Source: Gammaproteobacteria bacterium
Lineage (GTDB): Bacteria; Pseudomonadota; Gammaproteobacteria; Steroidobacterales; GCA-2729495
NCBI GenBank assembly: GCA_030583605.1
Contig: CP129466.1
Span: 3,289,028 to 3,353,027, forward strand
Direction: 5' to 3'
DNA: 64,000 nucleotides
Shown here: in pieces, positions 27,573 to 50,117 of the stretch
Layout of the letters: every line of letters begins with the position of its first letter
How positions within the stretch are numbered: position 1 is the stretch's first letter
The notes under the pieces: model-generated
The model's database searches: none
What the model was told of the DNA's origin: nothing
Seen by the model: only the letters and a program-made list of their open reading frames with translations
Translations under genes and position numbers: made by a program

Positions 27573-27630
27573 GGCGCTATGGTACCGGAGGCGGGTGCGG
27601 GCAGGCGTGGCCGTTCGGTACCATAGCGTC

Positions 27631-28293
27631 ATGCGATTGCTGCTGGTCGAGGACGACACCATGATCGGCGAGGCCGTCCGCCTCGGGCTGCGCCGGCAGG
27701 GCCTCGCCGTGGACTGGGTGCAGGACGGCGCCGCGGCCAAGGCGGCGCTGTCGGCCGAGAACTTCGACCTGATGCTGCTCGACCTCGGCCTGCCGAAGCT
27801 CGACGGATTGCAGCTGCTGCAGTGGCTGCGAGGCACCGGCAGCACGCTGCCGGTGCTGATCCTGACCGCCCGGGACTCGGTCGAAGACCGGATCAAGGGC
27901 CTCGACGCCGGCGCCGACGATTACATCGTCAAGCCCTTCGACCTCGACGAACTCGCCGCGCGCCTGCGCGCCGTGCTGCGCCGCCAGACGGGCCGCGCCG
28001 AGAACCTCGTAGAGCACCTCGGCGTGACGCTGAATCCTGCCAGCCGCGAAGTGACTCGGGACGGGGTGGCCATCAACCTGTCTCACCGCGAGTTCGCGTT
28101 GCTCGAAGCGCTGATCGACAGGCCCGGCCAGGTGCTCTCGCGCACGCAGCTCGAGGAACGGCTCTACGGCTGGGGCGAGGAAGTCGAGAGCAACGCGGTC
28201 GAGGTCCACATCCATAACCTGCGCAAGAAACTCGGCGCCGATTACATCCAGAACGTGCGCGGAGTCGGTTACCGGCTGCGCGCCGCTTCATGA
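27631..28293 (+). CDS. OmpR-family response regulator (QseB/BasR-like)
   Basis: [26 protein letters not shown], and a winged-helix C-terminus ([12 protein letters not shown]...[11 protein letters not shown]). Confidence 0.85.
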
Positions 28294-29600
28294 CCACCAT
28301 CCGCGCGCGGCTGCTCGTGTGGCTGCTCTCCGCGGTGATCGCCGCTGCCCTCTCCGGCGCGTTCACGACCTACCAGATCACGCTCGAGAGCGCCGGCGAG
28401 GTCTTCGACGAGCAACTCCAGCAGACGGCCTACTCCCTGCGCGACCAGTCGTTCGAATTCGCGCTGCCCCCGCAGCTGCCTGCCTCGGAGACACGCAACA
28501 GGGTCGTCGTCCAGGTCTGGACCGCCAACGGCGTACGGCTGTATTTCTCCGAGGTCTACCGCGAGCTGCCGGGGCTGCAGCCCCCGGGGTTCTCCAACGT
28601 CAAGGCCGGCAACGTGACCTGGCGGGTCTTCTCGCTGCCGAGCCGCGGCTACGTGATCCAGGTGGCCCAGCCGCTGGTGGTGCGCCAGAGCCGCGCCATC
28701 GGCCTGGCCCTGCAAACACTCACGCCCCTCGCCCTGATGCTCCCGATCCTGGGCGCAGCGATCTGGCTGATCGTCGGCACCCAGCTGAAACCGCTCGATC
28801 GCCTCGCGCAATCGGTGCGCTTGCGCGAGGCCGATGCACTCGAGCCGTTCGCCGAGCCCGGCCTGCCTGACGAAATCCGGCCGCTGGTCATGGCGCTGAA
28901 CGATCTGCTCGCACGCCTGCGCACCGCCATCAATGCGCAGCAGGCGTTCATCGCGGATGCCGCGCACGAGCTGCGCACGCCGCTCACCGCGGTCCGCCTG
29001 CAGTTACAGCTCGCCGAGAAGGCCGAGAGCGAGGAGGAGAAAACTGCGGCGTTCGCGCAGTTGCGCCATGGTATCGGGCGCACCGCGCGCCTGGTCGAAC
29101 AGATGCTGAATCTCGCGCGCCACGAGGCTTCTCCAATGGTGCGCGAGATCGTGGCGCTGGAGGCGCTCGCGCGCGAGGTGGTGGCTGATCTTGCGCCGCT
29201 CGCCGACGCGCGCCACCAGGACTTCGGGCTGGCGGAGTCCTCGCCGGCCGTCGTGCGTGGCGATCCGCACGCGCTGCGTATGCTGTTGCGCAATCTTGCC
29301 GATAACGCCATCCGCTACAGCCCGGAGGGCGGCAAGGTGGACGTGAGCGTCGGCGTACTCGCCGGCACACCCTTCCTGCGGGTGGCCGATTCGGGCCCCG
29401 GTATTCCGCCCGAGGATCGCGAGCGGGTATTCGCCCGCTTCTTCCGTCGTGCCGACAGCGGCGTCAGCGGCACCGGACTGGGCCTGGCCATCGTCCGGAG
29501 CATCGTCAAAAACCATAATGCAAACATAGAGTTGTCAGACAACCCCGGCGGTGGCGGACTGAGCGTAACGGTCACCTTCCCGGTCGCCGCTGAAGATTAA
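28290..29600 (+). CDS. sensor histidine kinase (QseC/BasS-like)
   Basis: Two TM spans, H-box ADAAHELRTPLTAV, N box LADNAIRYSP, and G boxes DSGPGIP and GTGLGLAIV. The start overlaps the regulator's stop. Confidence 0.85.
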   Translation: MTTIRARLLVWLLSAVIAAALSGAFTTYQITLESAGEVFDEQLQQTAYSLRDQSFEFALPPQLPASETRNRVVVQVWTANGVRLYFSEVYRELPGLQPPGFSNVKAGNVTWRVFSLPSRGYVIQVAQPLVVRQSRAIGLALQTLTPLALMLPILGAAIWLIVGTQLKPLDRLAQSVRLREADALEPFAEPGLPDEIRPLVMALNDLLARLRTAINAQQAFIADAAHELRTPLTAVRLQLQLAEKAESEEEKTAAFAQLRHGIGRTARLVEQMLNLARHEASPMVREIVALEALAREVVADLAPLADARHQDFGLAESSPAVVRGDPHALRMLLRNLADNAIRYSPEGGKVDVSVGVLAGTPFLRVADSGPGIPPEDRERVFARFFRRADSGVSGTGLGLAIVRSIVKNHNANIELSDNPGGGGLSVTVTFPVAAED

Positions 29601-29734
29601 GCATTCTTTAAGTAAACACCCCTACTCTGCGCACCATCGATTTGCGCAAGCGGTTGCCGAGACGCCCTCCCCGCAACGGGCGAAGACGACGAAGCGACCC
29701 ACTCGAAGATCCTCCAGACGAGTCACGAATCGAG

Positions 29735-29770
29735 CAGGCCGGTGCCCCCCCCCACCGGCCTGTTTTTTTT
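29735..29770 (+). terminator. rho-independent terminator
   Basis: 10-bp stem CAGGCCGGTG / CACCGGCCTG with a C-rich loop, followed by T8. Lies 135 nt downstream of the kinase stop. Confidence 0.75.
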
Positions 29771-29813
29771 CCGTCTGCGTTCGCAGTGTTGCACCGACCT
29801 ATTGCACCAATGT

Positions 29814-29840
29814 GAACCTCGCGGCACGCAGGCGGTCACA
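29814..29840 (+). promoter_or_regulatory. candidate sigma-E (RpoE)-type promoter for degP/htrA
   Basis: GAACCT-N16-TCACA compared with the recalled consensus GGAACTT-N16-TCAAA. About 115 nt upstream of the degP-like ATG; degP is a classical RpoE regulon member. Confidence 0.4.
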
Positions 29841-29892
29841 TACCCGGCGCGCAGACTCACCGAGCAGCGCGTGTAAGCAAGTCTTAAGCGAC

Positions 29893-29908
29893 GTTCACTA
29901 GTGTGAAC
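29893..29908. promoter_or_regulatory. 16-bp palindrome GTTCAC-TAGT-GTGAAC upstream of degP/htrA
   Basis: Perfect 6-bp arms. A third GTGAAC lies at 29812-29817. About 50 nt upstream of the ATG. Confidence 0.3.
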
Positions 29909-29956
29909 ATCCAACGGCTTGCATGGTGCGAATCAACAGTGAGTGGCACGCGTAAC

Positions 29957-31453
29957 ATGAATACAAAGTCGTTAGTTATCTCCGGCGTCGTCGTGGCTGC
30001 TGTCGCAGGCTCGGCCATTTTCCTCCCCACGGCATGGCACTCCCCCGCCATCGCCGCGACCCCCCCAGAGCCGTCTGCGACAACTTCCGCGCCGGCGCCG
30101 GCCTCTTCTCCCCCCGTTGTAGCCGGCCTGCCGGATTTCAGCACGCTGGTCGAGCGGTTCGGGCCAGCCGTCGTGAACATCACCGTCAAGCAGGAGATGC
30201 GCACGTCGGCCCGCGGCCGCTTCGATGACCCGATGGAAAGCTCGCCGTTTGCGCCGTTCTTTCGCGGTCTTCCGGCACCACCCGCCCGCCCCATGACCGG
30301 CCAGGGCTCGGGGTTCATCATTTCGGCCGACGGGCTCGTGCTCACTAACGCGCACGTGGTCGACGATGCGGACGAAGTCACCGTCAAGCTCACCGACAAA
30401 CGCGAGTTCACCGCACAGGTGCTGGGCAAGGACAAGCTGACCGACGTCGCCGTGCTGCGAATCGACGCGCACGATCTGCCGTTCGTTCAGTTCGGCAACC
30501 CGGAAGACCTGCAGGTCGGCGAGTGGGTCGTCGCAATCGGTTCTCCCTTCGGCTTCGAGAACTCCGTGACGGCCGGCATCGTCAGCGCCAAGGGTCGCGC
30601 GCTGCCCGACGACACTTACGTGCCGTTCATCCAGACGGACGTGGCGGTCAACCCCGGCAACTCCGGTGGCCCGTTGTTCAACCTGCGCGGTGAGGTCGTC
30701 GGCATCAACTCGCAGATCTTCAGCCGCACCGGCGGATACCAGGGCGTGTCCTTCGCCATCCCCATCGACGTGGCGATGCGCGTGCAGAAGGATCTCGTGG
30801 CGGATGGGCATGTGTCACGCGGCTGGCTCGGCGTCGGCATCCAGGGCATGAGCCGCCAGCTTGCCGAGAGCTTCGGTCTCGATCAGCCGCGCGGCGCACT
30901 CGTCTCGCAGGTGATGCCGGGCAGCCCGGCCGCCACGGCAGGGCTCCAGGCCGGCGACGTCATCCTCGAGTTCGGCGGCAAGGCGATCAATGATTCCTCC
31001 GACCTGCCGCCGCTCGTCGGCGCCACCAGGATCGGGACCGACGTACCCCTGAAGGTCCTGCGCAACGGCAAGGAGAAGAACCTCACGGCCGAGATCGCAC
31101 GACTCGCTGACGATGATGGCGGCGAGCCTGAGGCAACCCTCGGCTCCAACGGCAATGAGTCGCGCTCGCACCTCGGAGTGGCGGTCGCCGATCTGTCGGA
31201 CAGCCAGCGCGCCCAGCTCGGCATCGAGCATGGCGGCGTCGTGGTCACACAGGTCAGCGATGGCCCGGCTGCCGAGGCTGGCATCCGGCGCGGCGACGTG
31301 CTGCTGCAACTCGGCCGGGAGCAGATCGACGGCAGCCAGAAGCTGCGCGAACTCCTCGACAAGGCGCCGCAAGGCAAGCCGATCCCGATCCTGGTCCGGC
31401 GTGGCGAAAACACCTTGTTCCTCGCGTTGCAGCCGGCCTCGCGAAACGGCTAG
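29957..31453 (+). CDS. htrA: periplasmic serine endoprotease, DegP/DegQ (HtrA) family
   Basis: Signal peptide; triad contexts LTNAHVV, DVAVLRI and GNSGGPLFN; two PDZ-like repeats. Confidence 0.9.
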   Translation: MNTKSLVISGVVVAAVAGSAIFLPTAWHSPAIAATPPEPSATTSAPAPASSPPVVAGLPDFSTLVERFGPAVVNITVKQEMRTSARGRFDDPMESSPFAPFFRGLPAPPARPMTGQGSGFIISADGLVLTNAHVVDDADEVTVKLTDKREFTAQVLGKDKLTDVAVLRIDAHDLPFVQFGNPEDLQVGEWVVAIGSPFGFENSVTAGIVSAKGRALPDDTYVPFIQTDVAVNPGNSGGPLFNLRGEVVGINSQIFSRTGGYQGVSFAIPIDVAMRVQKDLVADGHVSRGWLGVGIQGMSRQLAESFGLDQPRGALVSQVMPGSPAATAGLQAGDVILEFGGKAINDSSDLPPLVGATRIGTDVPLKVLRNGKEKNLTAEIARLADDDGGEPEATLGSNGNESRSHLGVAVADLSDSQRAQLGIEHGGVVVTQVSDGPAAEAGIRRGDVLLQLGREQIDGSQKLRELLDKAPQGKPIPILVRRGENTLFLALQPASRNG

Positions 31454-34168: not shown

Positions 34169-36229
34169 TCAGTTCCACTGCGACCAGTCGCGGCGATTCT
34201 CGGCCACGTGAAACAGCGCCGCGATCACCCGCCGGTCGAACTCGGTGCCGGCGCCGCGCAGCAGTTCATCGAGCGCCGCTTTCACGGAGATTCCTTCGCG
34301 GTACGCGCGGCTGCTGACCAGCGCGACGAAGGCATTGGCCACCGCAAGCACCTGGCCGGCGAGGGTGATCCGCTCGCCACTCAGGCCGTGCGGATAGCCG
34401 CGCCCATCGGGGCGCTCCTGCTTCTGCGCAATGATGTCCATTACCGGGCCATCGAACTCCAGGCCGCGCAGCAATTCCAGGCCGTAGTCTACGTGCTTGC
34501 GCAGCAGTTCCTGTTCGGCGGCGTTCAGCGGTTCGCTCTTCGTGAGGATGTCGGCCGGGATCATGATCTTGCCGATGTTGGCGAGGCTCGCCGCCAGGTC
34601 GAGCAGGCCCCGCTCGCTGTCGTTGAACCCGAGTTCGCGCGCCAGGGCATCCACCACCTCGGTCATGCGCCGCGCATGGTTGGCGGAGAACGGGTCGTGG
34701 CGATCCACCGCGCTCACCAGCGTCAGCACCAGGCGTCGCAGCAGGCTGGTGTTGCGCCGGTGTGCCGCCTCGAGGTCGGTGACGTCGCTCAGCACGAGCA
34801 ACGTCGGCGCGTACTCTCCGGCCAGGCGCTCGACCGGAATGAAACTCGCGCGATAGCTGCGGGTCGTCGCCCCGGAGGGCCAGTGCAGCAGCTTGTGCAC
34901 CACCGCCTGTTGCTGGGTGGCCGCCTCGATGCCCGCGTGCAGATCGTGCAGCTGGCCCGAGGACAGGAAGCTCGCGAGTCTGGTATCCAGCACGTCCGCG
35001 ATGGCCGACCCGACCGCTGCCGCCGCGGCCTGGTTCACGAACAGCACGCGCTCCTCGCGGCTCACGAGCAGGGTCAGCACGTCCAGGTTGTCGGTGATCG
35101 TGTGCAGTCGCTCGGTCTGGCGTTGCAGGCGACCGGCCTTGTCCGCGAGTTCGTCGGCATGGTGGCGCGAGCGCACGCTGCTGCCGTGGCGCCAGGCGGC
35201 CACGACGATGGCAACGATGGCGACCAGCGCCAGCGAAAGCGCGAGCAGCATGAAGCGGCGCCGTTCGTCGGCGAGGCTGAGGGCCGCAGCCGCATCCACC
35301 TGCTGCGCCAGCACCCAGCCCTCTTCGCCGCGGATACGGCGGCTCACCTGCAGCACCGGCCGGCCGAGGTAATTGTCGAGCGCCACGAAGCGCCCCGGAG
35401 CGGCAACAGCCGCGATCTCGGCGAGATCCGCCCGATCCGCGGGAAGCGTGCGCCGCAGGCCGGGCGAGCCGTCACGCGTCGGCGACAGCAGCACGACCGT
35501 GTCGGCGCGGCGCTCGAGGAGCAGCGACTCGTTGTCCTCGACGAAGGCCGGACTGCGTGTCAGCAACGGAAACAGCTCCTGCTCCGCACTGCGGATGCCG
35601 AGGAGCACGCCCAGCGGGCGCTCGTTGTCCGGGCCGCGGGTGCCCGGCACGGCATTGATCGCCACCGCAATCACGAGCACCGCCGCATCCTGCGCATCGC
35701 GCATCAGCACCGCGCCGGCGCGCGGCGGGTCCTGCAGGGCATTGCGCGCCATGGCCGCAAAGTTTGCGCGCGCCTCCACCAGCCCGGGCGTCGCCAGCAC
35801 GGGATTGAGGTTCATGTCGAAGATGACCAACCCTTCCGCGCGCGGCTGTGCCAGGTTGGCCGGCACGCGGATGCGCGACGCCGTGGCGTAGCCGAACCGC
35901 TCCGCGGCCGCGAGCAGCAGGTTACGCAGGTAACCGAGCGTATCGGGCTCGACGCCTGCGGCGCCCGACGCCTGCCCGAGCTGCCAGAGATAAAAGCGCA
36001 GCGAGGCGTTGGCGGCCAGCTCCTGCAGGTTGCGGCGGTCGGCGGAAACCAGCCGGTGAATCGCGTCGGCTTTGGCATCCGCGACCAGCCCGAGCCGCGA
36101 CTCCCATTGCAACAGGTCGCGTTCGCGTTCCTGCCCGATGTAGGCGTTGATAAGGAATGCCCCGAAGCCGACCAGCGCCAGCAGCGCCAGCACCCCGGCA
36201 GTGATGGAGAATCTCACCGGAGCGCTCAC
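34169..36229 (-). CDS. transmembrane sensor: periplasmic domain - PAS - HD-GYP (c-di-GMP phosphodiesterase type)
   Basis: GTG 36229 overlaps the upstream gene's TGA (GTGA). TM1 FSITAGVLALLALVGFGAFLINAYI, a ~295-aa periplasmic segment, then TM2 FMLLALSLALVAIVAIVVAAW. PAS-like LVSREERVLFVNQAA...LLVLSDVTDLE. HD-GYP motifs RHDPFSANHARRM, IGKIMIP and ERPDGRGYPHGL. Confidence 0.8.
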   Translation of the reverse strand: MSAPVRFSITAGVLALLALVGFGAFLINAYIGQERERDLLQWESRLGLVADAKADAIHRLVSADRRNLQELAANASLRFYLWQLGQASGAAGVEPDTLGYLRNLLLAAAERFGYATASRIRVPANLAQPRAEGLVIFDMNLNPVLATPGLVEARANFAAMARNALQDPPRAGAVLMRDAQDAAVLVIAVAINAVPGTRGPDNERPLGVLLGIRSAEQELFPLLTRSPAFVEDNESLLLERRADTVVLLSPTRDGSPGLRRTLPADRADLAEIAAVAAPGRFVALDNYLGRPVLQVSRRIRGEEGWVLAQQVDAAAALSLADERRRFMLLALSLALVAIVAIVVAAWRHGSSVRSRHHADELADKAGRLQRQTERLHTITDNLDVLTLLVSREERVLFVNQAAAAAVGSAIADVLDTRLASFLSSGQLHDLHAGIEAATQQQAVVHKLLHWPSGATTRSYRASFIPVERLAGEYAPTLLVLSDVTDLEAAHRRNTSLLRRLVLTLVSAVDRHDPFSANHARRMTEVVDALARELGFNDSERGLLDLAASLANIGKIMIPADILTKSEPLNAAEQELLRKHVDYGLELLRGLEFDGPVMDIIAQKQERPDGRGYPHGLSGERITLAGQVLAVANAFVALVSSRAYREGISVKAALDELLRGAGTEFDRRVIAALFHVAENRRDWSQWN

Positions 36230-36882
36230 GAACGCGAACCCCGGTTGCCCGGCGTGTGGATCCACCAGCCGCGCTCGTTGATCGAATAGACCGGCGCGTA
36301 GTGCACCACCTGCCGGTGCCCGAGCACGCCGGGCACCTGGTTGTCGAGCACCAGTATGTCGGCGCCACTGCCGACCGCCAGCACCGCATGGGGCACGGCG
36401 AGGTTCGTGTCCTGCACCACGACGATACGCATCTCGTCCTGCGGATACCCGAGCCAGCGCAAGGAGAAGTACTTGGTGATCGCGAAGTCCTCGCAATCGC
36501 CGCCGTTCGCGAAAAACTCCCTGGGAATCGCCCAGTAGTCCTCGATGCCGTAGTTCTCCAGATCGAGGATGTAATCCTTCTCGTTGGCGTAGCGATTCAC
36601 CTCGCGCAGTTGCTCGGCCACCGGCAGCGCCCGGATGCGGTCGAGAAACGCGAGCCAGCGCCTCATGTGACAGCGATTGAGGCGCCGCTCATCGCAATCA
36701 CCATCGCGCAGGTTGTCGCGCAGTTGCCGCTCGAGGGCGTTGAGCCATTGTGGAAAGTCGGCGAGGTTTTCCTGCGCGGCCTGGCGGTAGCCGAACAGGT
36801 TCGCAGGAAATGCAGCGGCGACCATCGGACAGAACGCAAGCAGCAGGAGTACCCGGGCCGCACCCCGGCGGAACTGCGACAT
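36226..36882 (-). CDS. periplasmic transglutaminase-like cysteine protease (BTLCP / LapG family)
   Basis: From Met 36882: signal peptide MSQFRRGAARVLLLLAFCPMVAAAFP. Catalytic contexts GGDCEDFAITKYFSL (Cys), AVPHAVLAV (His) and LVLDN (Asp), matching the BTLCP pattern I recall. Confidence 0.75.
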   Translation of the reverse strand: MSQFRRGAARVLLLLAFCPMVAAAFPANLFGYRQAAQENLADFPQWLNALERQLRDNLRDGDCDERRLNRCHMRRWLAFLDRIRALPVAEQLREVNRYANEKDYILDLENYGIEDYWAIPREFFANGGDCEDFAITKYFSLRWLGYPQDEMRIVVVQDTNLAVPHAVLAVGSGADILVLDNQVPGVLGHRQVVHYAPVYSINERGWWIHTPGNRGSRS

Positions 36883-36907
36883 AATCGATTGAGCCGGCGA
36901 CGAGCAG

Positions 36908-36925
36908 CCCGTAGTATCCCGTAGT
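36908..36925. promoter_or_regulatory. tandem direct repeat CCCGTAGT-AT-CCCGTAGT in a 61-bp divergent intergenic region
   Basis: Two identical 8-mers with 10-bp periodicity between the BTLCP start (36882) and the Slam start (36944). An 8-bp palindrome AATCGATT lies at 36883-36890. Confidence 0.35.
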
Positions 36926-36943
36926 CCCTGGCGATTTAACAAT

Positions 36944-38230
36944 ATGCACATGCGTGAATTGCTCTTGTCCGGCCGCTGTATCCGAGCCTTGACCGCCCTT
37001 GCGCTCGTCCTGGCGGGATCGATTGCAACGGCCGACGAACTGCAGGACCAGTTCGATTCGGCGATCAACGCCATCGAAACGGACCGTCTGCGCACCGCGC
37101 GCGACGAACTGCTGGCGCTGCTCGCGGCGAACCCGAGCCTGAATCGCGCGCGGCTGGAGCTCGCCCGCGTCCACTATCTGTCGCAGGACTACGAACAGGC
37201 ACGTATCGAGGCGCAGCGCGTGCTCGACGACCCCAACACACCGGCCGGCGTGCGCACCACACTGCTCGCCTTCCTCGCCCAGATCGACGAAGACGAGCGG
37301 CGCAACATGCAGCGCCACCAATGGACGCCATCGGTGTATCTCGGCGCCATGTACGACAGCAACGTCAACGTCGGTCCGGACCGCGACCTGATCGATATCG
37401 GCGGGCTGCCGTTCGTCGTCCTGCCCGACTCACGCGAAACGAGCGACTGGGCCCTGGTGGTCAATCCCTCGATCGCCCATACCTACAATCCCAACAAGCG
37501 ATTCGACTCCGGGGAACACAAGGGCTTTTTCCTCTGGCAAAGCGAGGCAGGCACGTACTACCGCAGTTATTTCGACGAGGACGATTACAACCTCGGCATC
37601 CTCACGCTGCGTACCGGCCCGGTGTGGGTGGTGCCGCAGCACTGGCGGGCCTGGGTTGGACTGCAGGCGGACCAGATCTTCCTCAGCGACGAGAGTTTCG
37701 CCCTGTACACCGGCCTGAACCCCGGCGCGACCTGGCAGGTCGGGGACGCGACAGAAGTCACGCTCGAGGGCGTGGTCACCCACCGCAACCACTGGGACAG
37801 CGACGAGGAAGGCCGGGACGGCTGGTACCAGGCGGGCTCGGTCTCCGCAACGAGGTACTTCAACCAGCGCAAGTTTGCGCTGAACGGCGGCGTCGGCCTG
37901 ATCAGTTTCGATGCCGACGAGGATCGCTTCGGCCACAGCGGGCCCGAGGTCTACGGCGGATTCTTCGCCGAAGCCTGGCGCAACGGCGTGGTTTTCGGAC
38001 GGGTGGGTTACACGAAGTACGACTACGACGGCGACGAGCCAGGCTTCAACACCGCGCGCGACGACGACGAGATGCGCTACACGCTTGGCTTCGGCCACGA
38101 CATCCAGTCCGGCTTCCTCGATGACTGGTCATTGCAGGGCAGCTGGGTGTACACCGACAACGACTCGAACCTGTCGCTCTACGACTACGACCGCCACGTC
38201 GTGAATCTCGGCATCGCCCGCAGTTTCTGA
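36944..38230 (+). CDS. Slam / type XI secretion outer-membrane protein (DUF560 barrel with N-terminal TPR)
   Basis: Signal peptide, then a TPR-like helical region (RLRTARDELLALLAANPSLNRARLELARVHYLSQDYEQARIEAQRVL). Then an alternating beta pattern starting WTPSVYLGAMYDSNVNVGP and ending YDYDRHVVNLGIARSF (C-terminal Phe). Confidence 0.7.
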   Translation: MHMRELLLSGRCIRALTALALVLAGSIATADELQDQFDSAINAIETDRLRTARDELLALLAANPSLNRARLELARVHYLSQDYEQARIEAQRVLDDPNTPAGVRTTLLAFLAQIDEDERRNMQRHQWTPSVYLGAMYDSNVNVGPDRDLIDIGGLPFVVLPDSRETSDWALVVNPSIAHTYNPNKRFDSGEHKGFFLWQSEAGTYYRSYFDEDDYNLGILTLRTGPVWVVPQHWRAWVGLQADQIFLSDESFALYTGLNPGATWQVGDATEVTLEGVVTHRNHWDSDEEGRDGWYQAGSVSATRYFNQRKFALNGGVGLISFDADEDRFGHSGPEVYGGFFAEAWRNGVVFGRVGYTKYDYDGDEPGFNTARDDDEMRYTLGFGHDIQSGFLDDWSLQGSWVYTDNDSNLSLYDYDRHVVNLGIARSF

Positions 38231-38470
38231 CCGCCGGTTCGCGGTCAGCGCTGCTTCCCGACGCGTATTGAGCCCGCCGGCGCGCAGCTGCATTGCCGCG
38301 ACGCATCGCCGGCCGTTTCATTTACCATATCGCGTGAACGGGTTCTCACTGCAGCGCTGCTGTCAGTGAACAAACGTACGATTTGCGGTACAAAGGCCAT
38401 GAGGCGTACACAAGAACAGGGAATCAAACGCCCCGGCGCCGTGGCGTCGTCCCGCGGAGAACAACAAACA

Positions 38471-39679
38471 ATGCGCGCGCTCATCTTCTGCCTTGCCTTG
38501 CTGCCGGCGTTCTGGACCACCGGAGCCGTCGCCCAGACTGCGTCGCTCGATAACCGCGAATGCGCGGGGATCCTCGAACGCTGGGCGAACGACCCGAAGT
38601 CCGTGCCAAAACGCCTTGTGGACCAGTGCAAGGACCAGCTGGCCGCCGTGGCACCGGCCGCCGCGCCGGAAGAACCGATGGCCGCGGCAATCGATCCCTG
38701 CGCCGGCCCGAATGCCGGCGCCTCGGTGCTGTGCTGGGGCCCATGGGCCGGACTGGAACCCTCCGCTGCAGCACCCGTTCCCGGGGCGCCCGACACGAAC
38801 CCGGTGACCGGCCTGGAACCGCGGCCGGAAACCGCGGAGATATTCCAGCCCGAGGTCGAGCCGGATGAGGTCATCACGCCGGAACCGCCATTCCCGCCCC
38901 TGCCGCTTGGGCCCTGCACGCCGGGCGCCCCCTGCGGGTTCGCGACCCTGGTCGATGGCCGCACCAGCAGCGCAGATCCGGCCGACACGAGCTTCCACCG
39001 CTTCGACCTGGCCCCGGACGGCTCGCAGTTCACCGTCGACCCGGGTGGCGAGGGCGAAATCAATTCCGTCACCGGCATGGACACCACTTACGGCAGCCGG
39101 CCCGACGAGTACGAGAACCTCGTGGCGACCGGGCGCAGCGGCGATGAGCAGTCGCGCATCGGCGCGCGGGTGATCCGCAGCGACGATGGCGAAGGTGGCC
39201 CGGGCGACATCGAAGTGGCGGCCGACATCTGGACCCACGGCAACCGCGCCACCGGCAAGATCCAGTCGGGCTACTTTGCCTGGGGCAATGCCACCAGCCA
39301 GGCGGGGCTCGACGCGCTGCGCGGCCAGGGCGCCTCCGTGCGTTTCAGCGGGCCGATGTCGGTGGACAACGCCACCGTCGGATCAATGACACTGAACTTC
39401 GGCACGCAGCCGGCCTGGAGCGGCAACTGGGTGAACCCGGGCTACAGTTTCTCGGCCGGCGGGCGCATGAGCGGCGTCGATCTCGTCTCCGACAGCGACA
39501 AATTCAGCGCCAACGTGCTCGCGGACAGTGTCGTGCAGGGTGCATTGCTCGGCGAGCCGGGCTCGCAGTCGATCGCACACATCATCGACGTGAATCTCGC
39601 CGACAAGGGTCGGATCAAGGATGTCGGGCTGCTGCGCGAGGCAGGCGTCGCTCCTGGCATCAGCAACGCGCCGCGGTAG
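38471..39679 (+). CDS. secreted protein with C-terminal TbpB/fHbp-like 8-stranded barrel; predicted T11SS cargo
   Basis: From Met 38471 (GGAGAA RBS). SPase-I type signal MRALIFCLALLPAFWTTGAVA|Q with no lipobox. Six Cys in three clusters and a Pro-rich linker. C-terminal pattern ASVRFSGPMSV...GSMTLNFGTQPAWSGNW...FSAGGRMSGVDL...VQGALLGEPGSQSIAHIIDV...IKDVGLL resembles TbpB/fHbp/HphA barrels. Confidence 0.6.
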   Translation: MRALIFCLALLPAFWTTGAVAQTASLDNRECAGILERWANDPKSVPKRLVDQCKDQLAAVAPAAAPEEPMAAAIDPCAGPNAGASVLCWGPWAGLEPSAAAPVPGAPDTNPVTGLEPRPETAEIFQPEVEPDEVITPEPPFPPLPLGPCTPGAPCGFATLVDGRTSSADPADTSFHRFDLAPDGSQFTVDPGGEGEINSVTGMDTTYGSRPDEYENLVATGRSGDEQSRIGARVIRSDDGEGGPGDIEVAADIWTHGNRATGKIQSGYFAWGNATSQAGLDALRGQGASVRFSGPMSVDNATVGSMTLNFGTQPAWSGNWVNPGYSFSAGGRMSGVDLVSDSDKFSANVLADSVVQGALLGEPGSQSIAHIIDVNLADKGRIKDVGLLREAGVAPGISNAPR

Positions 39680-39704
39680 CGTGGCACAGACAGGACCTGT
39701 GAGA

Positions 39705-40298
39705 ATGACCATGAAACTGATTTCACGATTACTGGCCGTGGCGACGCTCGGTGCCGCAGCCAACCTGCAGGCGGCAAGCATCACGCTCGTGCCGTCCGCC
39801 TCGAACATCATCGAGGACACGCTCTTCACCGTGAACGTGGTGCTGGACGCGAGCGGTGCGCCCGGTGCAGATCCCGGCCTGTATATCGGCGAAGTGACCG
39901 TGGATTTCGACCCCACACAGCTCGCCTACCAGAGCTTTGCGTTTACCTCACCCGTCGGGCCTCTGGGGGGCGCGCCCTCCGTCGGCGCAGCCGGCGACCG
40001 GCAGACCGTGACGTTCGGATTCCAGCAGGCCACCAATAACAGCACGATCGGCACATTCAGCTTCCTCGCGCTCGGCAGCCCCGGCACCATCGCTTCGCTC
40101 GGCGTTGCCGATGCGGACGACTTCATCGGGACTTTCATCGCCAAGCTGCCGACGGATCAACCGTTCTATCCGGAGTTCAATGGCGCTTCGGTCGCCATCT
40201 CGCCGGTGCCGCTGCCCGCCACCGCATGGTTACTGGTGACGGCGCTTGCCGCAGCCAGTGCCCGGGCACGCCGGGCCCGGCACCAGCACGACGCCTGA
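39705..40298 (+). CDS. VPLPA-CTERM sorting-signal protein with cohesin-like domain
   Basis: Signal MTMKLISRLLAVATLGAAANLQA. The beta-rich domain (ITLVPSASNIIEDTLFTVNVVLDAS...GEVTVDFDPTQLAY) is cohesin-like. The C-terminus VPLPATAWLLVTALAAASARARRAR matches the VPLPA-CTERM motif, TM and Arg cluster. Confidence 0.7.
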   Translation: MTMKLISRLLAVATLGAAANLQAASITLVPSASNIIEDTLFTVNVVLDASGAPGADPGLYIGEVTVDFDPTQLAYQSFAFTSPVGPLGGAPSVGAAGDRQTVTFGFQQATNNSTIGTFSFLALGSPGTIASLGVADADDFIGTFIAKLPTDQPFYPEFNGASVAISPVPLPATAWLLVTALAAASARARRARHQHDA

Positions 40299-41889: not shown

Positions 41890-42648
41890 ATGTCCAGCAG
41901 ACCGCTCACCATCGGCGCCCTTGCACGACGACTCAACGTATCGACCTCGATGCTGCGTTTCTACGAGCGCGAGGGCCTGCTGGCACCGGAACGACGCAGC
42001 GCCTCCGGATACCGGCTGTATCCGGCCAGCGCAGAGAAAACGCTGCTCTTCATTCGCCGCGCACAGCGGCTCGGGTTTTCACTGAACGACATCAAGCTGC
42101 TGCAGCACGGTGGCAGCAACAAGGGTCGCGACGACGTGATGAATATCGCCGAGCAGCGTTTCCTCGACATCGAGCGACGCCTCACCGAGATGCTTGTGCT
42201 GCGCCACGAGCTCGAGTTCTTTCTCGAGGACCTGACCGAGCGTGTCGGACGCGCTGCCGGAGGCCCGACCGGCAGGCTTTATCGCGAGCTCCTGAACCAG
42301 GTGTGCGGACACGAAGCGCGGCACAAGGCGCCCTCCTCGCTGGCCCGCCTCATCAAGCGACTCGGCTGCGCGCTCGCGACCGCCGAACGCGACAAGGTGT
42401 TCGCAACGCTGCGCGGCCGCCATATCCATATCTGGCGCGAGGACGACGGCTATTCGATCCTCGTCGCGAGTCGCGACCCCCAGGTCGAGAAAGCCCTGCG
42501 CCAGCTCGCTGCGAGCGAGGCTAACTGCGAGGTTCACGTCGAACCGCGTGTCTCAGAGGCCGATGAGGGTTTCCTGTTCCAGGTGCGCGGGCCGAACTCT
42601 TTTCTCTTCGCGCAACTGTTTCTGGCGCTAGAGACGGCCGAGACCTGA
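41890..42648 (+). CDS. MerR-family transcriptional regulator with atypical ~130-aa C-terminal domain
   Basis: N-terminal LTIGALARRLNVSTSMLRFYEREGLLAPERRSASGYRLY... (MerR wHTH) plus a coiled-coil. The C-terminal part is not the short Cys-loop of CueR/ZntR/CadR. Confidence 0.8.
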   Translation: MSSRPLTIGALARRLNVSTSMLRFYEREGLLAPERRSASGYRLYPASAEKTLLFIRRAQRLGFSLNDIKLLQHGGSNKGRDDVMNIAEQRFLDIERRLTEMLVLRHELEFFLEDLTERVGRAAGGPTGRLYRELLNQVCGHEARHKAPSSLARLIKRLGCALATAERDKVFATLRGRHIHIWREDDGYSILVASRDPQVEKALRQLAASEANCEVHVEPRVSEADEGFLFQVRGPNSFLFAQLFLALETAET

Positions 42649-42829
42649 GTCCCGGCACATGCCACGCGCCGGCGCCCGGCATGCAAGAGCCGTCGCGACC
42701 GGCAACCGCCGGCGCAGCGCGCTGACCCGCAGACCCGGCGCAACCCGGCTGCCGCGGACCGCCGGCTGCGGAATATCCCTATAAGATCGATACCAGGTAT
42801 TGCTTTCAAAACCTGCCGGCCGATATCAT

Positions 42830-42852
42830 AAGTGCGATACAAAATCGTTCTT
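42830..42852. promoter_or_regulatory. candidate NsrR operator AAGTGCGATAC-A-AAATCGTTCTT
   Basis: 11-1-11 imperfect inverted repeat. The right half matches the recalled consensus AAATGCATCTT at 8/11. Lies 29 nt upstream of the norB ATG, with nsrR encoded immediately downstream. Confidence 0.35.
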
Positions 42853-42880
42853 CAGCGCATCCCGTCAGAAAGGCCCCAAC

Positions 42881-45160
42881 ATGAACCCCAACCGTCGCCT
42901 CTGGAAGGCGCTTGCCGTAATTTTTGTCCTGTCTTTTGCCGTGCTTGGCTGGATTGGCCGGGAAATCTACCTGGCCGCACCACCCATCCCGGCTACGGTA
43001 CTCACCGGGAGCGGCGACGTCGTTTTCACGGGCGACCAGATACGGCATGGGCAACAGGTCTGGCTGGCCGCCGGCGGGCAGCAGCTCGGCTCCGTGTGGG
43101 GCCACGGCGGATATGTCGCCCCGGACTGGTCGGCCGACTGGCTGCACCGCGAAGCCCTCGCCCTGCGGGATCTGCAGGCCCGACAGTCCTTCGGCACACC
43201 CTACCGGCAACTCTCGGTGGACCAGCGCGGCAGTATCGATGCGCGCCTGCGTCATGAAATGCGGCATAACGATTACGACGCCGCGCGTGACCTGCTGACG
43301 GTCTCGGCCAACCGTGCCTCGGCCATCCGGGCGGTCGCGGCGCATTACTCCGGCCTGTTCGCCGACGAGCCGGGCCTTGACGGACTGCGGGAGCAGTACG
43401 CGATGACTGCCGGCACCGTGCCATCGAGCGCGGACCGCGCGGCGCTGACAGCCTTCTTCTTCTGGTCCTCCTGGGCGGCTGCCACCGACAGGCCCGGCGA
43501 GAACGGCCTCTCCTACACCAGCAACTGGCCGCACGAACCACTGGTTGGCAACGAACTGACCGCGGGCAGCGCCATCTGGACCATCGTCAGCATCGTACTG
43601 CTGATCGCCGGCATCGCGGCGATGCTCTGGTACCACGGCTCGCAACCCGAGCCGGAGGAACTGCCGGCCCCGGTGAACAACCCGCTGGAGAACATCGCTC
43701 CGACGCCGTCGATGCTGGCAACCCGCAAGTACTTCTTCGTGGCCGTCGGGCTGCTGCTCGGCCAGGTGGCGCTCGGCGCCATCACGGCACACTACGCGGT
43801 CGAGGGGCAGTCATTCTTCGGATTGCCGCTCGGCGAGATACTGCCCTACGTGGTCAGTCGCACCGCCCATACGCAGTTCGGCATCTTCTGGATTGCCACC
43901 GCATGGCTGGCAACCGGCCTGTACATCGCCCCGCTGCTCTCCGGCCATGAACCGAAAGGCCAGAAACTCGGCGTGGACCTGCTCTTCTGGGCGCTTCTCG
44001 TCATCGTGGTCGGTTCCACCATCACCGGCTGGCTCGGGACCATACAGCGGCGAGGCGTCGATTTCGCGTTCTGGATCGGCAATCAGGGTCTGGAATTCAC
44101 CAGCATGGGCCGCATCTGGCAGTTCCTGCTGTTCATCGGCCTGCTGCTGTGGCTCGTCCTGCTCGGCCGCGCGCTTTGGCCGGCGCTGCGGCGGCCCTCC
44201 GAATCACGTGGGCTGATCAGCATGGTGTTCCTCTCGGCCATTTGCATCGGCGGCTTCTATGCCACCTCGCTGGTCTGGAACCAGGAAACGCACTACTCGA
44301 TGATCGAGTACTGGCGCTGGTGGCTGGTGCACCTCTGGGTCGAGGGCTTCTTCGAAGTCTTCGCAACCGCGGTCGTCGCCCTGATCTTCGCGCGACTCGG
44401 GCTGGTGCGCACGAGCACGGCCAACAGTGCAATCGTGCTCGAGACCGCGGTCTTCCTGTTCGGCGGCATACTCGGCACGCTGCATCACCTGTACTTCACC
44501 GGCACGCCGACGTCGGTCATCGCGCTCGGTGCCGTGTTCTCCGCGCTCGAAGTGGTGCCACTGGCGCTGCTGGGGCTGGAGGGCTACCGCACCTACCGGC
44601 GCAGCCAGGCCGCACCATGGGTGGCCGAGTATCGCTGGCCGATACTCTGCTTCGTGGCAGTGGCCTTCTGGAACGTGGTCGGTGCGGGCCTCCTCGGCTT
44701 CGCGATCAACCCACCGGCGTCGCTGTACTTCGTGCAGGGACTGAACCTGACGGCGGCCCATGGCCATGCGGCGCTGTTCGGCGTGTACGGGATGCTCGGA
44801 ATCGGGCTCGCGCTGTTCTGCCTGCGCGGCCTGTTCGCGTCCGCCTGGCACGACGAACGCCTGCTCAAGCACGCGTTCTGGACCCTGAACATCGGCCTCG
44901 GGCTGATGGTGTTCCTGTCGCTGCTCCCGGCGGGGATCTACCAGGCCGTGGCGAGCATCACCGAAGGCCTGTGGTATGCGCGATCACCCGAAGTCGTGCA
45001 CTCACGCTGGATGGAACTGTTCGTCTGGCTGCGGGTGCCCGGCGATGTCGTCTTCGGACTCGGAGCGCTCTGCCTCGGCGCTTACGTACTGAAGCTGATC
45101 GCAGCCCGCTCCAGGCGGACCGCGGCGGCCACGCTCACACAGGCAGGCGAAATGGCCTGA
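42881..45160 (+). CDS. norB: quinol-dependent nitric oxide reductase (qNOR, single-subunit NorB/NorZ)
   Basis: 759 aa from Met 42881 with an N-terminal extension plus 12+ TM spans. Heme-copper oxidase-type blocks WWLVHLWVEGFFEVF and AHGHAALFGVYGMLG. Confidence 0.85.
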   Translation: MNPNRRLWKALAVIFVLSFAVLGWIGREIYLAAPPIPATVLTGSGDVVFTGDQIRHGQQVWLAAGGQQLGSVWGHGGYVAPDWSADWLHREALALRDLQARQSFGTPYRQLSVDQRGSIDARLRHEMRHNDYDAARDLLTVSANRASAIRAVAAHYSGLFADEPGLDGLREQYAMTAGTVPSSADRAALTAFFFWSSWAAATDRPGENGLSYTSNWPHEPLVGNELTAGSAIWTIVSIVLLIAGIAAMLWYHGSQPEPEELPAPVNNPLENIAPTPSMLATRKYFFVAVGLLLGQVALGAITAHYAVEGQSFFGLPLGEILPYVVSRTAHTQFGIFWIATAWLATGLYIAPLLSGHEPKGQKLGVDLLFWALLVIVVGSTITGWLGTIQRRGVDFAFWIGNQGLEFTSMGRIWQFLLFIGLLLWLVLLGRALWPALRRPSESRGLISMVFLSAICIGGFYATSLVWNQETHYSMIEYWRWWLVHLWVEGFFEVFATAVVALIFARLGLVRTSTANSAIVLETAVFLFGGILGTLHHLYFTGTPTSVIALGAVFSALEVVPLALLGLEGYRTYRRSQAAPWVAEYRWPILCFVAVAFWNVVGAGLLGFAINPPASLYFVQGLNLTAAHGHAALFGVYGMLGIGLALFCLRGLFASAWHDERLLKHAFWTLNIGLGLMVFLSLLPAGIYQAVASITEGLWYARSPEVVHSRWMELFVWLRVPGDVVFGLGALCLGAYVLKLIAARSRRTAAATLTQAGEMA

Positions 45161-45224: not shown

Positions 45225-45689
45225 ATGCGGCTCACGACCTTCACCGACTACAGCCTGCGCGTACTCATTTATCTGGCGATCCGCCCCGAGCAACGCGTGA
45301 CCATTGCCGAGATCGCCACCGCGTTCGATATTTCCGAAAGTCACCTGATGAAGGTCGTGCACTTTCTCGGCAAGCACGGCTTCCTTGCCAACGTACGCGG
45401 CAAAGGGGGCGGCCTGACCCTGGCATCGACGCCGGATGCCATCAATGTCGGTGCCGTCGTGCGCCTGACCGAGGCGGACTCCCTGCCGGCAGAGTGTTTC
45501 GACCCGGATCGCAACACCTGCGTCATCAGCCAATCCTGTCAGCTGCGCAAGATCCTCGGCGAAGCGGTCAGTGCGTTCTACTCGGTCCTCGAGCGCTACA
45601 GCCTGGCCGACCTCGTTGTCGGACGCAGCCAGCTCGCGCGGATCCTGTCGATCCCGGTCGAGACCGTCCGGCGCCGCGCCAGGCCCTGA
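45225..45689 (+). CDS. nsrR: Rrf2-family NO-sensing repressor NsrR
   Basis: MRLTTFTDYSLRVLIYLA...TIAEIATAFDISESHLMKVVHFLGKHGF...RGKGGG. Three Cys (CFDPDRNTCVISQSC) for the Fe-S cluster. Confidence 0.85.
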   Translation: MRLTTFTDYSLRVLIYLAIRPEQRVTIAEIATAFDISESHLMKVVHFLGKHGFLANVRGKGGGLTLASTPDAINVGAVVRLTEADSLPAECFDPDRNTCVISQSCQLRKILGEAVSAFYSVLERYSLADLVVGRSQLARILSIPVETVRRRARP

Positions 45690-50104: not shown

Positions 50105-50117
50105 CGATTCGTCTCCC

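Follow-up and report, generated by a model that had tools for sequence, protein, structure and literature searches.

A cassette of four genes, encoding a putative periplasmic protease, an inner-membrane receptor of cyclic di-GMP (c-di-GMP), an outer-membrane protein (OMP) and its candidate cargo, has been analyzed in a stretch of 64,000 nt of contig CP129466.1 from a Gammaproteobacteria bacterium (hereafter, the window). These genes probably constitute a proteolytic switch that follows the logic of LapG/LapD in the form of DvhG/DvhD and acts on type 11 (Slam-like) secretion (T11SS), with two accessory genes added to it. An earlier note on this DNA, made from its letters alone, had centered on the proposal that a c-di-GMP-linked switch acts on a protein exported by T11SS and that the HD-GYP protein plays an inside-out role like that of LapD. 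Both parts of this proposal are supported by the synteny, conserved over deep divergence, and by the near-invariant motif [T/A/P]AA[G] found in the cargo family. The coordinates and the gene placement in that note were also correct.

The cassette in the window is organized as two divergent transcription units separated by a short spacer, whose length and position agree with the previous description (Table 1). In orthologous loci the spacer is 42–179 bp long. A promoter scan of the 61-bp spacer gave no match to the sigma-70 consensus, which is uninformative at 68% GC. As had been stated before, LapD, RTX adhesins and type 1 secretion system (T1SS) genes are absent from the window: we observe no T1SS, no GGDEF-EAL protein of the LapD type, no exosortase and no giant adhesin within these 64 kb, the longest open reading frame being at most 936 aa.

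Table 1. Features of the cassette in the window, listed by position (BTLCP, bacterial transglutaminase-like cysteine protease; AF2, AlphaFold2)
Feature	Position	Strand	Basis or details
DvhD-like inner-membrane c-di-GMP receptor (predicted), 686 aa from GTG	34169-36229	-	Pfam HD_5 and PAS_4, PDB matches
Degenerate HD-GYP domain of receptor	34190-34747	-	Translation; alignment to DvhD and active phosphodiesterase 5z7c
Cytoplasmic PAS domain of receptor	34760-35113	-	Residues ~373-490; PAS_4 at 380-487; aligns with DvhD PAS in 9rc0
Periplasmic sensor/output domain of receptor	35255-36139	-	Residues 31-325; weak dCache_1 in orthologues
BTLCP (LapG/DvhG-type) calcium-dependent cysteine protease (predicted), secreted, 218 aa	36226-36882	-	PF06035
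Divergent intergenic region	36883-36943	.	61 bp; protease/receptor operon versus OMP/cargo operon
Slam-like (T11SS, DUF560/SlipAM branch) OMP (predicted), 428 aa	36944-38230	+	AF2 model, PF04575 matches of orthologues
Putative T11SS cargo and putative BTLCP substrate, 402 aa	38471-39679	+	AF2, Foldseek, hhalign
Predicted protease recognition/cleavage motif	38732-38773	+	Window reads CWGPWAGLEPSAAA; translation
VPLPA-CTERM (PEP-CTERM-type) accessory secreted protein, 195 aa	39711-40298	+	TIGR03370; sorting signal 40206-40295
Accessory YcbB/LdtD-like L,D-transpeptidase, 497 aa	40309-41802	+	YkuD, Scaffold, PG_binding_1

Conservation of the cassette

A scan seeded with the cargo, in which each species was represented by one genome, has identified 63 loci, all from uncultured Gammaproteobacteria; adjacency was counted only in loci with enough flanking sequence (assessable loci). 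The OMP gene adjoins the cargo gene, which lies immediately downstream, in 53 out of 57 assessable loci, the divergent BTLCP gene is adjacent in 55 out of 57, and the receptor gene, in 49 out of 52. The two accessory genes are frequent as well, the VPLPA-CTERM gene adjoining the cargo gene in 49 of 57 assessable loci and the L,D-transpeptidase gene being found downstream in 45 of 50. As the genes flanking the cassette vary from locus to locus, it seems to be mobile or independently maintained.

A metagenome scan seeded with a distant cargo clade, approximately 30% identical to the cargo of the window (below, the second clade), yielded 29 more loci, 12 of them with enough upstream sequence. The same arrangement, with receptor and protease genes divergent from OMP and cargo genes, is present in all 12. 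In the four second-clade loci inspected downstream (L078, L081, L083 and L087) the cassette is followed by leuA and other housekeeping genes. No L,D-transpeptidase was found by tblastn in second-clade loci, and a VPLPA-like match was obtained by the same search only in L081, where it is weak and located approximately 3.5 kb downstream of the cargo gene. As both accessory genes are absent from the second clade, they are regarded, from gene content, as clade-specific additions, and the conserved core is assigned to four genes, those of the receptor, the protease, the OMP and the cargo. Either accessory protein as a core component or as the protease substrate has been set aside for the same reason.

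Conservation of the BTLCP/HD-GYP/Slam neighborhood in relatives had been named in advance as a test of the proposal, and it is observed. The reservation that the adjacency could be coincidental is not borne out, given that the four genes are kept together across the 63-locus set and in every assessable locus of the second clade.

The module is present on the complete metagenome-assembled chromosomes OY970328.1, OZ244928.1 and OZ244979.1. On one complete chromosome, OZ244928.1, the cassette is split between two places (L050 9911-11742 and L075 7173-12812) approximately 1.5 Mb apart. The cargo and VPLPA-CTERM genes adjoin a gene for an OmpA-family protein with thrombospondin-type repeats, and the receptor and protease genes, divergent from those of the OMP and the L,D-transpeptidase, are found in the other place. 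This suggests that the cassette may consist of two sub-modules, the machinery on the one hand and the cargo with its partner on the other.

Protease and receptor

The protease matches PF06035 with 62.9 bits (cutoff 27), and its best matches in PDB are LapG structures from Legionella and Pseudomonas, 4fgo (80 bits) and 4u65 (70 bits). It scores 92.2 bits against the NCBIfam LapG equivalog NF045674, that is, below the cutoff of 320, and from sequence we classify it as a LapG-like BTLCP and not as a LapG orthologue. Residues D129-C130-E131, H165 and D180 are invariant in 55 species-level orthologues and align with the catalytic positions of LapG; D129 and E131 are predicted to be two calcium ligands flanking the catalytic C130, so that both the triad and the calcium site appear intact. 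The N-terminus is hydrophobic and resembles a signal peptide ending in A-A-A-F, consistent with putative periplasmic export. Thus, the previous assignment of this gene to BTLCPs with a signal peptide and a Cys/His/Asp context is upheld by the PF06035 match and by the invariance of these residues. All 55 orthologues also share two additional cysteines, C63 and C71, which may be linked by a disulfide.

The TGA of the protease gene overlaps the GTG of the receptor gene, as had been reported, forming GTGA at 36229-36226. Such a 4-nt overlap is the commonest arrangement among orthologous loci, and translational coupling of the two genes is predicted.

The receptor consists of a transmembrane segment, a periplasmic domain of approximately 295 aa, the second transmembrane segment, a PAS domain and a degenerate HD-GYP domain, in agreement with the architecture proposed earlier; the cytoplasmic domains are identified by Pfam as PAS_4 (3.8e-9) and HD_5 (1.3e-36). 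The start codon is uncertain by approximately 12 codons, the gene callers giving 682 or 698 aa.

The top PDB matches of the receptor are 9rc0 (PAS/HD-GYP) and 9rbz (HD-GYP), both of them DvhD from Desulfovibrio vulgaris. Against DvhD, the single sequence scores 135 bits and the family profile, built from 44 sequences, 212.6 bits (306 residues), compared to 92 and 147 bits, respectively, against the best active phosphodiesterase. DvhD, with SQ and MN substitutions in its own motifs, binds c-di-GMP at ~0.3 uM without hydrolyzing it, and a reconstituted system has shown that the BTLCP DvhG is under its control (PMC10990149; PMC13090378). In the receptor from the window, the canonical LHDIGK is changed to LANIGK, HHE to QKQE, and xADxF to VANAF, the GYP motif being intact. 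Alignment to DvhD and to 5z7c places A550-N551 opposite HD, K603-Q604 opposite HH, and N632 opposite the metal-ligand Asp. These replacements are nearly universal among 49 orthologues (A550 is present in 48, N551 in 47, K603 in 49, Q604 in 48 and N632 in 49 of them), as is G611-Y612-P613, present in all 49. Overall, out of eight metal ligands, four or five are missing from the domain, this loss is conserved, and the same degeneracy is present in the distant second clade.

Out of eight contacts of DvhD with c-di-GMP at the canonical site, six are conserved in the receptor family when mapped through the alignment: Y523, L577 and Y621 of DvhD correspond to Y/F514, L568 and Y612, and M646, R650 and Y652, to L637, R641 and Y643. 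One more, K582, is partly kept as R/Q573. As the metal ligands are lost and the best solved relative is the non-catalytic DvhD, the HD-GYP protein is predicted to be a DvhD-type non-catalytic c-di-GMP receptor and not an enzyme.

The periplasmic domain is less clear. The window copy has no match in Pfam, and comparison of the family profile with PDB yielded nothing meaningful (best E = 0.29). The only recurrent family is dCache_1 (PF02743), which matches 12 out of 44 orthologues weakly, with the best E = 2.6e-4; the domain is probably a divergent dCache.

One sub-lineage (L057, L058 and L062) encodes a shorter DvhD-like receptor of 563 aa without the PAS domain (L057 6190-7881), which has the same degenerate HD-GYP domain (LANVGK, QKQE). 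The VPLPA-CTERM gene is absent from this sub-lineage, and the cargo motif, described below, is shifted or altered there (PWQAPPQPLAGPILAAQ).

Outer-membrane protein, cargo and accessory proteins

The OMP from the window has no match to PF04575 at E <= 0.01, and its scores are weak against TPR_Slam (18.6 bits, cutoff 35.2) and DUF2860 (22.8 bits, cutoff 22.9). At the same time, five out of six tested orthologues, 56-66% identical to it, pass the gathering score of PF04575 (SlipAM) with 24.7-34.9 bits (cutoff 22), the match of one orthologue covering the full model, and some relatives bear the NCBI names “surface lipoprotein assembly modifier” and “DUF560.” The AF2 model (mean predicted local distance difference test, pLDDT, 92) has TPR-like helices at residues 12-121 followed by a barrel of approximately 14 long strands. 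Among the matches listed in the fold search of this model against solved structures, the best TM-scores belong to the 14-stranded OmpG, FadL and CymA, and no solved Slam is present among them. These data support a divergent OMP of the Slam/T11SS type with a predicted N-terminal periplasmic TPR domain. Hence, the initial DUF560/Slam call is not reproduced by direct Pfam comparison of the window protein and is recovered via its orthologues and the model.

The cargo is composed of a Sec signal peptide, a disulfide-stabilized helical hairpin, a disordered Pro/Ala linker and a TbpB-like beta domain. In its AF2 model (pLDDT 86) the hairpin spans residues 29-60, the low-confidence or disordered region, residues 61-145, and the beta-rich part, residues 150-391; three pairs of cysteines are invariant in 118 cargo homologues. 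A profile search of 1.84 billion representatives gave only 136 clusters, and Pfam domains were found neither in the window cargo nor in 120 homologues. Foldseek comparison of the model retrieved LbpB, fHbp and hemophilin HphA, all of them T11SS cargoes, with probability 0.95-0.99; by E-value (~1e-3 to 1e-2) these matches are weak, and the TM-scores are 0.27-0.44. Of ten distant members of the family that were scanned, four pass the threshold of PF01298 (TbpB_B_D) with 27-34 bits (cutoff 26), and hhalign aligns the family of the window cargo to these TbpB_B_D-positive relatives over the C-terminal barrel with 99.5% probability and E = 6e-23. As the PF01298-positive distant relatives are aligned in this way, the assignment of the protein to TbpB-type cargoes is supported indirectly. 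The TbpB fold previously ascribed to it thus lacks a Pfam match in the window protein itself and is retained on the strength of hhalign and of the Foldseek matches with weak E-values. More generally, the suggested searches with family profiles recovered PF06035 and HD_5 in the window proteins, and PF04575 and PF01298 only in their relatives.

The wider cargo superfamily (P0407-P0495; loci L078-L106) comprises secreted proteins of 320-470 aa with TbpB-like C-terminal barrels, invariant N-terminal DSVxxWG[R/P]W...[P/T]AAG and variable, often Pro-rich, central regions. GC content of the respective contigs ranges from 42% to 63%, and therefore the module seems to span diverse lineages.

The predicted cleavage motif lies in the disordered linker of the cargo. 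The family consensus, starting at C89, is CWGPW-x-x-[LV]-A-P-A-A-[G/A], and among the 118 homologues A97 is conserved in 114, P98 in 117, A99 in 116 and A100 in all 118. APAA is found at fixed spacing in approximately 55 out of 60 species-level orthologues. In the AF2 model the motif borders on the folded N-terminal part, pLDDT at residues 99-101 being below 50. Distant relatives have no helical hairpin and carry (D/E)SVxxWG[R/P]Wxx..[P/T]AAG right after the signal peptide, so that only ~25 residues separate the signal peptide from the AA site in the second clade; in 28 distant sequences with mean column identity of 22%, the residues S, W, G, W, A, A and G of this motif are invariant. The site of LapG/DvhG has been defined experimentally as [T/A/P]AAG, cut between the alanines (PMC13090378), and the motif of the cargo family matches this consensus, being thus a predicted site of the LapG/DvhG type. 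The earlier statement that no clean LapG site could be found is true for the window copy and does not extend to the family with its consensus APAA[G/A].

As for the accessory proteins, the VPLPA-CTERM protein from the window scores 23 bits against TIGR03370, slightly below the cutoff of 25.35, although the VPLPA motif is visible in its C-terminal translation; five out of ten orthologues exceed the cutoff with 29-35 bits. Hence, the VPLPA-CTERM call fails formally for the window copy and is rescued by half of the orthologues. The match to PepA, a flocculation-associated PEP-CTERM protein (NF033554), is sub-threshold at 19-25 bits (cutoff 80). The description of this protein as cohesin-like has been abandoned, since the sole match to such a fold among ten orthologues has E = 0.16. 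The L,D-transpeptidase is confirmed by YkuD (72.8 bits), Scaffold and PG_binding_1 matches, and scores 268 bits against PRK10594 (cutoff 425).

Mechanism, competing explanations and relation to known systems

By analogy with Lap, Dvh and CdrAB, we propose the following mechanism. The OMP would export the C-terminal domain of the cargo to the cell surface, and the N-terminal module would stay in the periplasm and tether the cargo. In the clade of the window the tether would be the disulfide-locked helical hairpin together with the WGPW element, and in the other clade, a short peptide, DSVxxWGRW. The TPR domain of the OMP may serve as the docking site of this tether, or the tether may close the barrel as a plug. 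As long as c-di-GMP is high, the nucleotide would occupy the non-catalytic HD-GYP site of the receptor, which would restrain the protease via its periplasmic domain. When c-di-GMP falls, the protease would be freed and cut the cargo between two alanines, releasing the surface domain. As a guess, the VPLPA-CTERM protein could be a partner of the cargo or a matrix component, and the L,D-transpeptidase could provide local peptidoglycan remodeling or tethering. More tentatively, and with a confidence that stops a little short of even, we suggest that these proteins represent an unrecognized class of T11SS cargoes with an N-terminal DSVxxWG[R/P]W...[P/T]AAG tether, whose display and release are gated by c-di-GMP via a DvhG/DvhD-type pair.

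Several points weigh against this interpretation. Each functional step, be it cleavage, binding of c-di-GMP, export through the OMP or retention at the surface, is inferred, and we know of no T11SS cargo retained through a periplasmic N-terminus. The segment of ~25 residues before the AA site in the second clade is too small for a bulky plug. The motif in the window itself is atypical, LEPSAAAP (S-A-A-A-P) versus P-A-A-G, and the L057/L058 and L032 lineages have shifted or degraded motifs. On the receptor side, E668, which provides guanine specificity in DvhD, is opposite Ala and hence not kept, and the dCache assignment of the periplasmic domain rests on weak matches. Finally, only 64 kb of the genome are visible, and a LapA-like adhesin may be encoded elsewhere.

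The main rival to tether and release is maturation, where the protease would trim an N-terminal propeptide or holding signal in the periplasm before or during export, licensing secretion of a soluble protein, with cleavage still gated by c-di-GMP. The short segment upstream of the AA site in the second clade is more suggestive of a propeptide than of a domain for retention, and release, not retention, is the fate of known T11SS cargoes without lipidation, such as hemophilin, which fits the Foldseek match to HphA. However, in the clade of the window the N-terminal domain is larger, disulfide-locked and followed by a linker of ~50 residues, and this layout resembles the succession of plug, cleavage site and membrane-spanning linker in LapA and CdrA; on balance, we consider maturation rather unlikely. 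A different possibility is that the neighborhood is coincidental or indirect. In this case the protease and the receptor would control an adhesin, either of T1SS (LapA-type) or of type Vb, encoded in another part of the genome, and the OMP and cargo would be functionally unrelated to them. Indeed, all characterized substrates of LapG and DvhG are T1SS or type Vb adhesins (PMC13090378), and the inspection was limited to the window. Still, the four genes stay together over ~75 loci with different flanks, down to ~30% cargo identity, the disordered region of the cargo has a near-invariant LapG-type motif, and the window is devoid of T1SS, LapD and a giant adhesin, making this explanation very improbable.

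An active HD-GYP phosphodiesterase, lowering c-di-GMP locally rather than sensing it, had been favored by the earlier note, where both HD and GYP were read as intact. The GYP motif is intact indeed, H518 and H579 are conserved, and the match to HD_5 is strong. On the other hand, the HD position reads AN, the previously assigned HD (DRHDPF) being upstream of the real motif position; HD, HH and Asp are replaced by AN, KQ and N in the window and in 47-49 of the 49 orthologues; and the closest solved relative, DvhD, has like substitutions and shows no hydrolysis in vitro (PMC13090378). This reading has therefore been rejected on the alignment of these orthologues to DvhD and active HD-GYP structures, and we leave it only a marginal chance. 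Equally slight is, in our view, the chance of transpeptidation, in which the cysteine enzyme, acting like a sortase, would resolve the acyl intermediate on an amine and anchor a cargo fragment covalently to peptidoglycan or to the VPLPA-CTERM protein, with the L,D-transpeptidase contributing to the linkage to peptidoglycan. BTLCPs have a transglutaminase-like fold, and in the clade of the window an L,D-transpeptidase and a protein with a sorting signal are linked to the cassette. But both of these genes are absent from the second clade and so are not needed for the core function, and all studied BTLCPs of the LapG/DvhG type are hydrolytic proteases (PMC13090378).

The closest known counterpart of the protease/receptor pair is DvhG/DvhD (BfsG/BfsD) of Desulfovibrio (Nitratidesulfovibrio) vulgaris Hildenborough, where a BTLCP gene also adjoins a gene for a protein with a transmembrane segment, a periplasmic domain, another transmembrane segment, PAS and HD-GYP (PMC10990149; PMC13090378). 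The periplasmic domain of DvhD is a solved dCache, in agreement with the weak dCache_1 matches of our family, both receptors are devoid of the HD and HH metal ligands, DvhD acting as a c-di-GMP receptor, and the [T/A/P]AAG motif of the DvhG/DvhD substrate is like that of the cargo family. Differences are in the substitutions (AN/KQ in the window versus SQ/MN in DvhD), the non-conserved E668, the membrane anchor of D. vulgaris DvhG in place of a putative signal peptide, and the gammaproteobacterial host. In addition, dvhG and dvhD are in one operon with T1SS and the giant RTX-type adhesin DvhA, whereas in the window their counterparts are accompanied by a Slam-like OMP and a TbpB-fold protein of 400 aa.

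The canonical Lap system of Pseudomonas fluorescens and its relatives (LapG/LapD/LapA/LapEBC) shares a calcium-dependent periplasmic BTLCP with the C-H-D triad, and would also share inside-out control by a degenerate c-di-GMP-binding inner-membrane receptor and a di-alanine site, predicted in our case, between the periplasmic retention element and the linker crossing the outer membrane. Unlike LapD, the receptor has no LapD_MoxY_N, HAMP, GGDEF or EAL domains; moreover, T1SS is absent from the window, the putative substrate is small and free of repeats, and the protease is far below the score of the LapG equivalog (92 versus 320). A precedent for LapG-type proteolysis acting on the cargo of a non-T1SS transporter is the type Vb pair CdrA/CdrB of Pseudomonas aeruginosa (PMC4694147), in which a small disulfide-containing periplasmic element holds the cargo in the barrel. 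CdrB, however, belongs to Omp85/TpsB and not to SlipAM/DUF560, and CdrA has its cleavage site on the C-terminal side, the site predicted for the cargo from the window being N-terminal.

With T11SS/Slam systems (TbpB, LbpB, fHbp, hemophilin, NilC; PMC8406197; PMC5449769; bioRxiv 10.1101/2024.09.26.615229) the cassette shares an OMP with an N-terminal TPR domain and a putative DUF560 barrel encoded beside the cargo, and a Sec-dependent cargo whose C-terminal part is probably an 8-stranded barrel of the TbpB_B_D type. As for differences, the OMP forms a divergent branch, itself under the PF04575 threshold, the cargo lacks the character of a lipoprotein, and genes of metal or heme uptake are absent from its neighborhood. 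Moreover, none of the T11SS described so far is linked to a protease, to c-di-GMP or to an N-terminal WGxW-PAAG module, terms that do not occur in the studies of T11SS neighborhoods. One more BTLCP acting outside Lap-type adhesin systems is HvyA, involved in Caulobacter crescentus capsulation (PMC4241560); it is compared here by description only, and this description includes neither a c-di-GMP receptor partner nor an outer-membrane transporter/cargo pairing.

In the literature searched we found no paper joining LapG or BTLCPs with Slam, DUF560 or T11SS in a biological sense. The study of T11SS neighborhoods and cargoes and the preprint of the founding T11SS paper do not mention LapG-type proteases, HD-GYP, c-di-GMP, L,D-transpeptidases or CTERM signals, and the neighborhood supplement of the DvhDG paper has no Slam, transpeptidase or Gammaproteobacteria entries. 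Therefore, the claim that the combination had not been described should be divided: the BTLCP/HD-GYP pair, published as DvhG/DvhD, and the mechanism class are already known, and the coupling to T11SS and the N-terminal WGxW-PAAG module of the cargo appear new.

So far, the adhesins known to depend on inside-out control of a periplasmic protease are the giant ones of T1SS (Lap, Dvh) and a single one of type Vb (CdrA). If the proposed switch is confirmed, T11SS would become the third secretion pathway under LapG-type proteolytic control, after T1SS and the type Vb system, and would for the first time be linked to second-messenger signaling. The protease/receptor pair would then be a portable module for unrelated routes of outer-membrane export, and the range of the HD-GYP-based receptor DvhD would be extended from Desulfovibrionales into Gammaproteobacteria. 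As recognition, retention and regulation of T11SS cargoes are largely open questions, the module would offer a testable mechanism of retention and release and give the TPR domain of Slam a concrete role as the docking site of the tether; the WGxW-PAAG motif can be used to find such cargoes. Judging by the names of source records, many of the hosts, uncultured Gammaproteobacteria, appear to originate from engineered or aquatic samples, and regulated surface proteins may matter for the behavior of flocs and biofilms, although this link is speculative.

Other genes of the window are mentioned for completeness. Directly downstream of the cassette are genes of a MerR-family regulator (41890-42648), a NorB-type quinol nitric-oxide reductase (42800-45160, from COX1 and NorB_cytochrome_c-like gene calls) and an Rrf2-family regulator (45225-45689), resembling together a cluster of nitric-oxide detoxification. 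They are followed by a TonB-dependent receptor (45760-48174; Plug and TonB_dep_Rec gene calls) and two adjoining genes of ABC exporters with fused membrane and ATPase domains (48275-50251 and 50118-51884), which have no HlyD or TolC partner. On the other side, a few kb from the cassette, the region 27571-31453 encodes, as seen from translations, a response regulator of the OmpR type, a sensor kinase and a protease similar to DegP/HtrA; near the cassette of an unrelated genome (L007) there are likewise a trypsin-PDZ protease of the HtrA type and a kinase resembling PhoQ.

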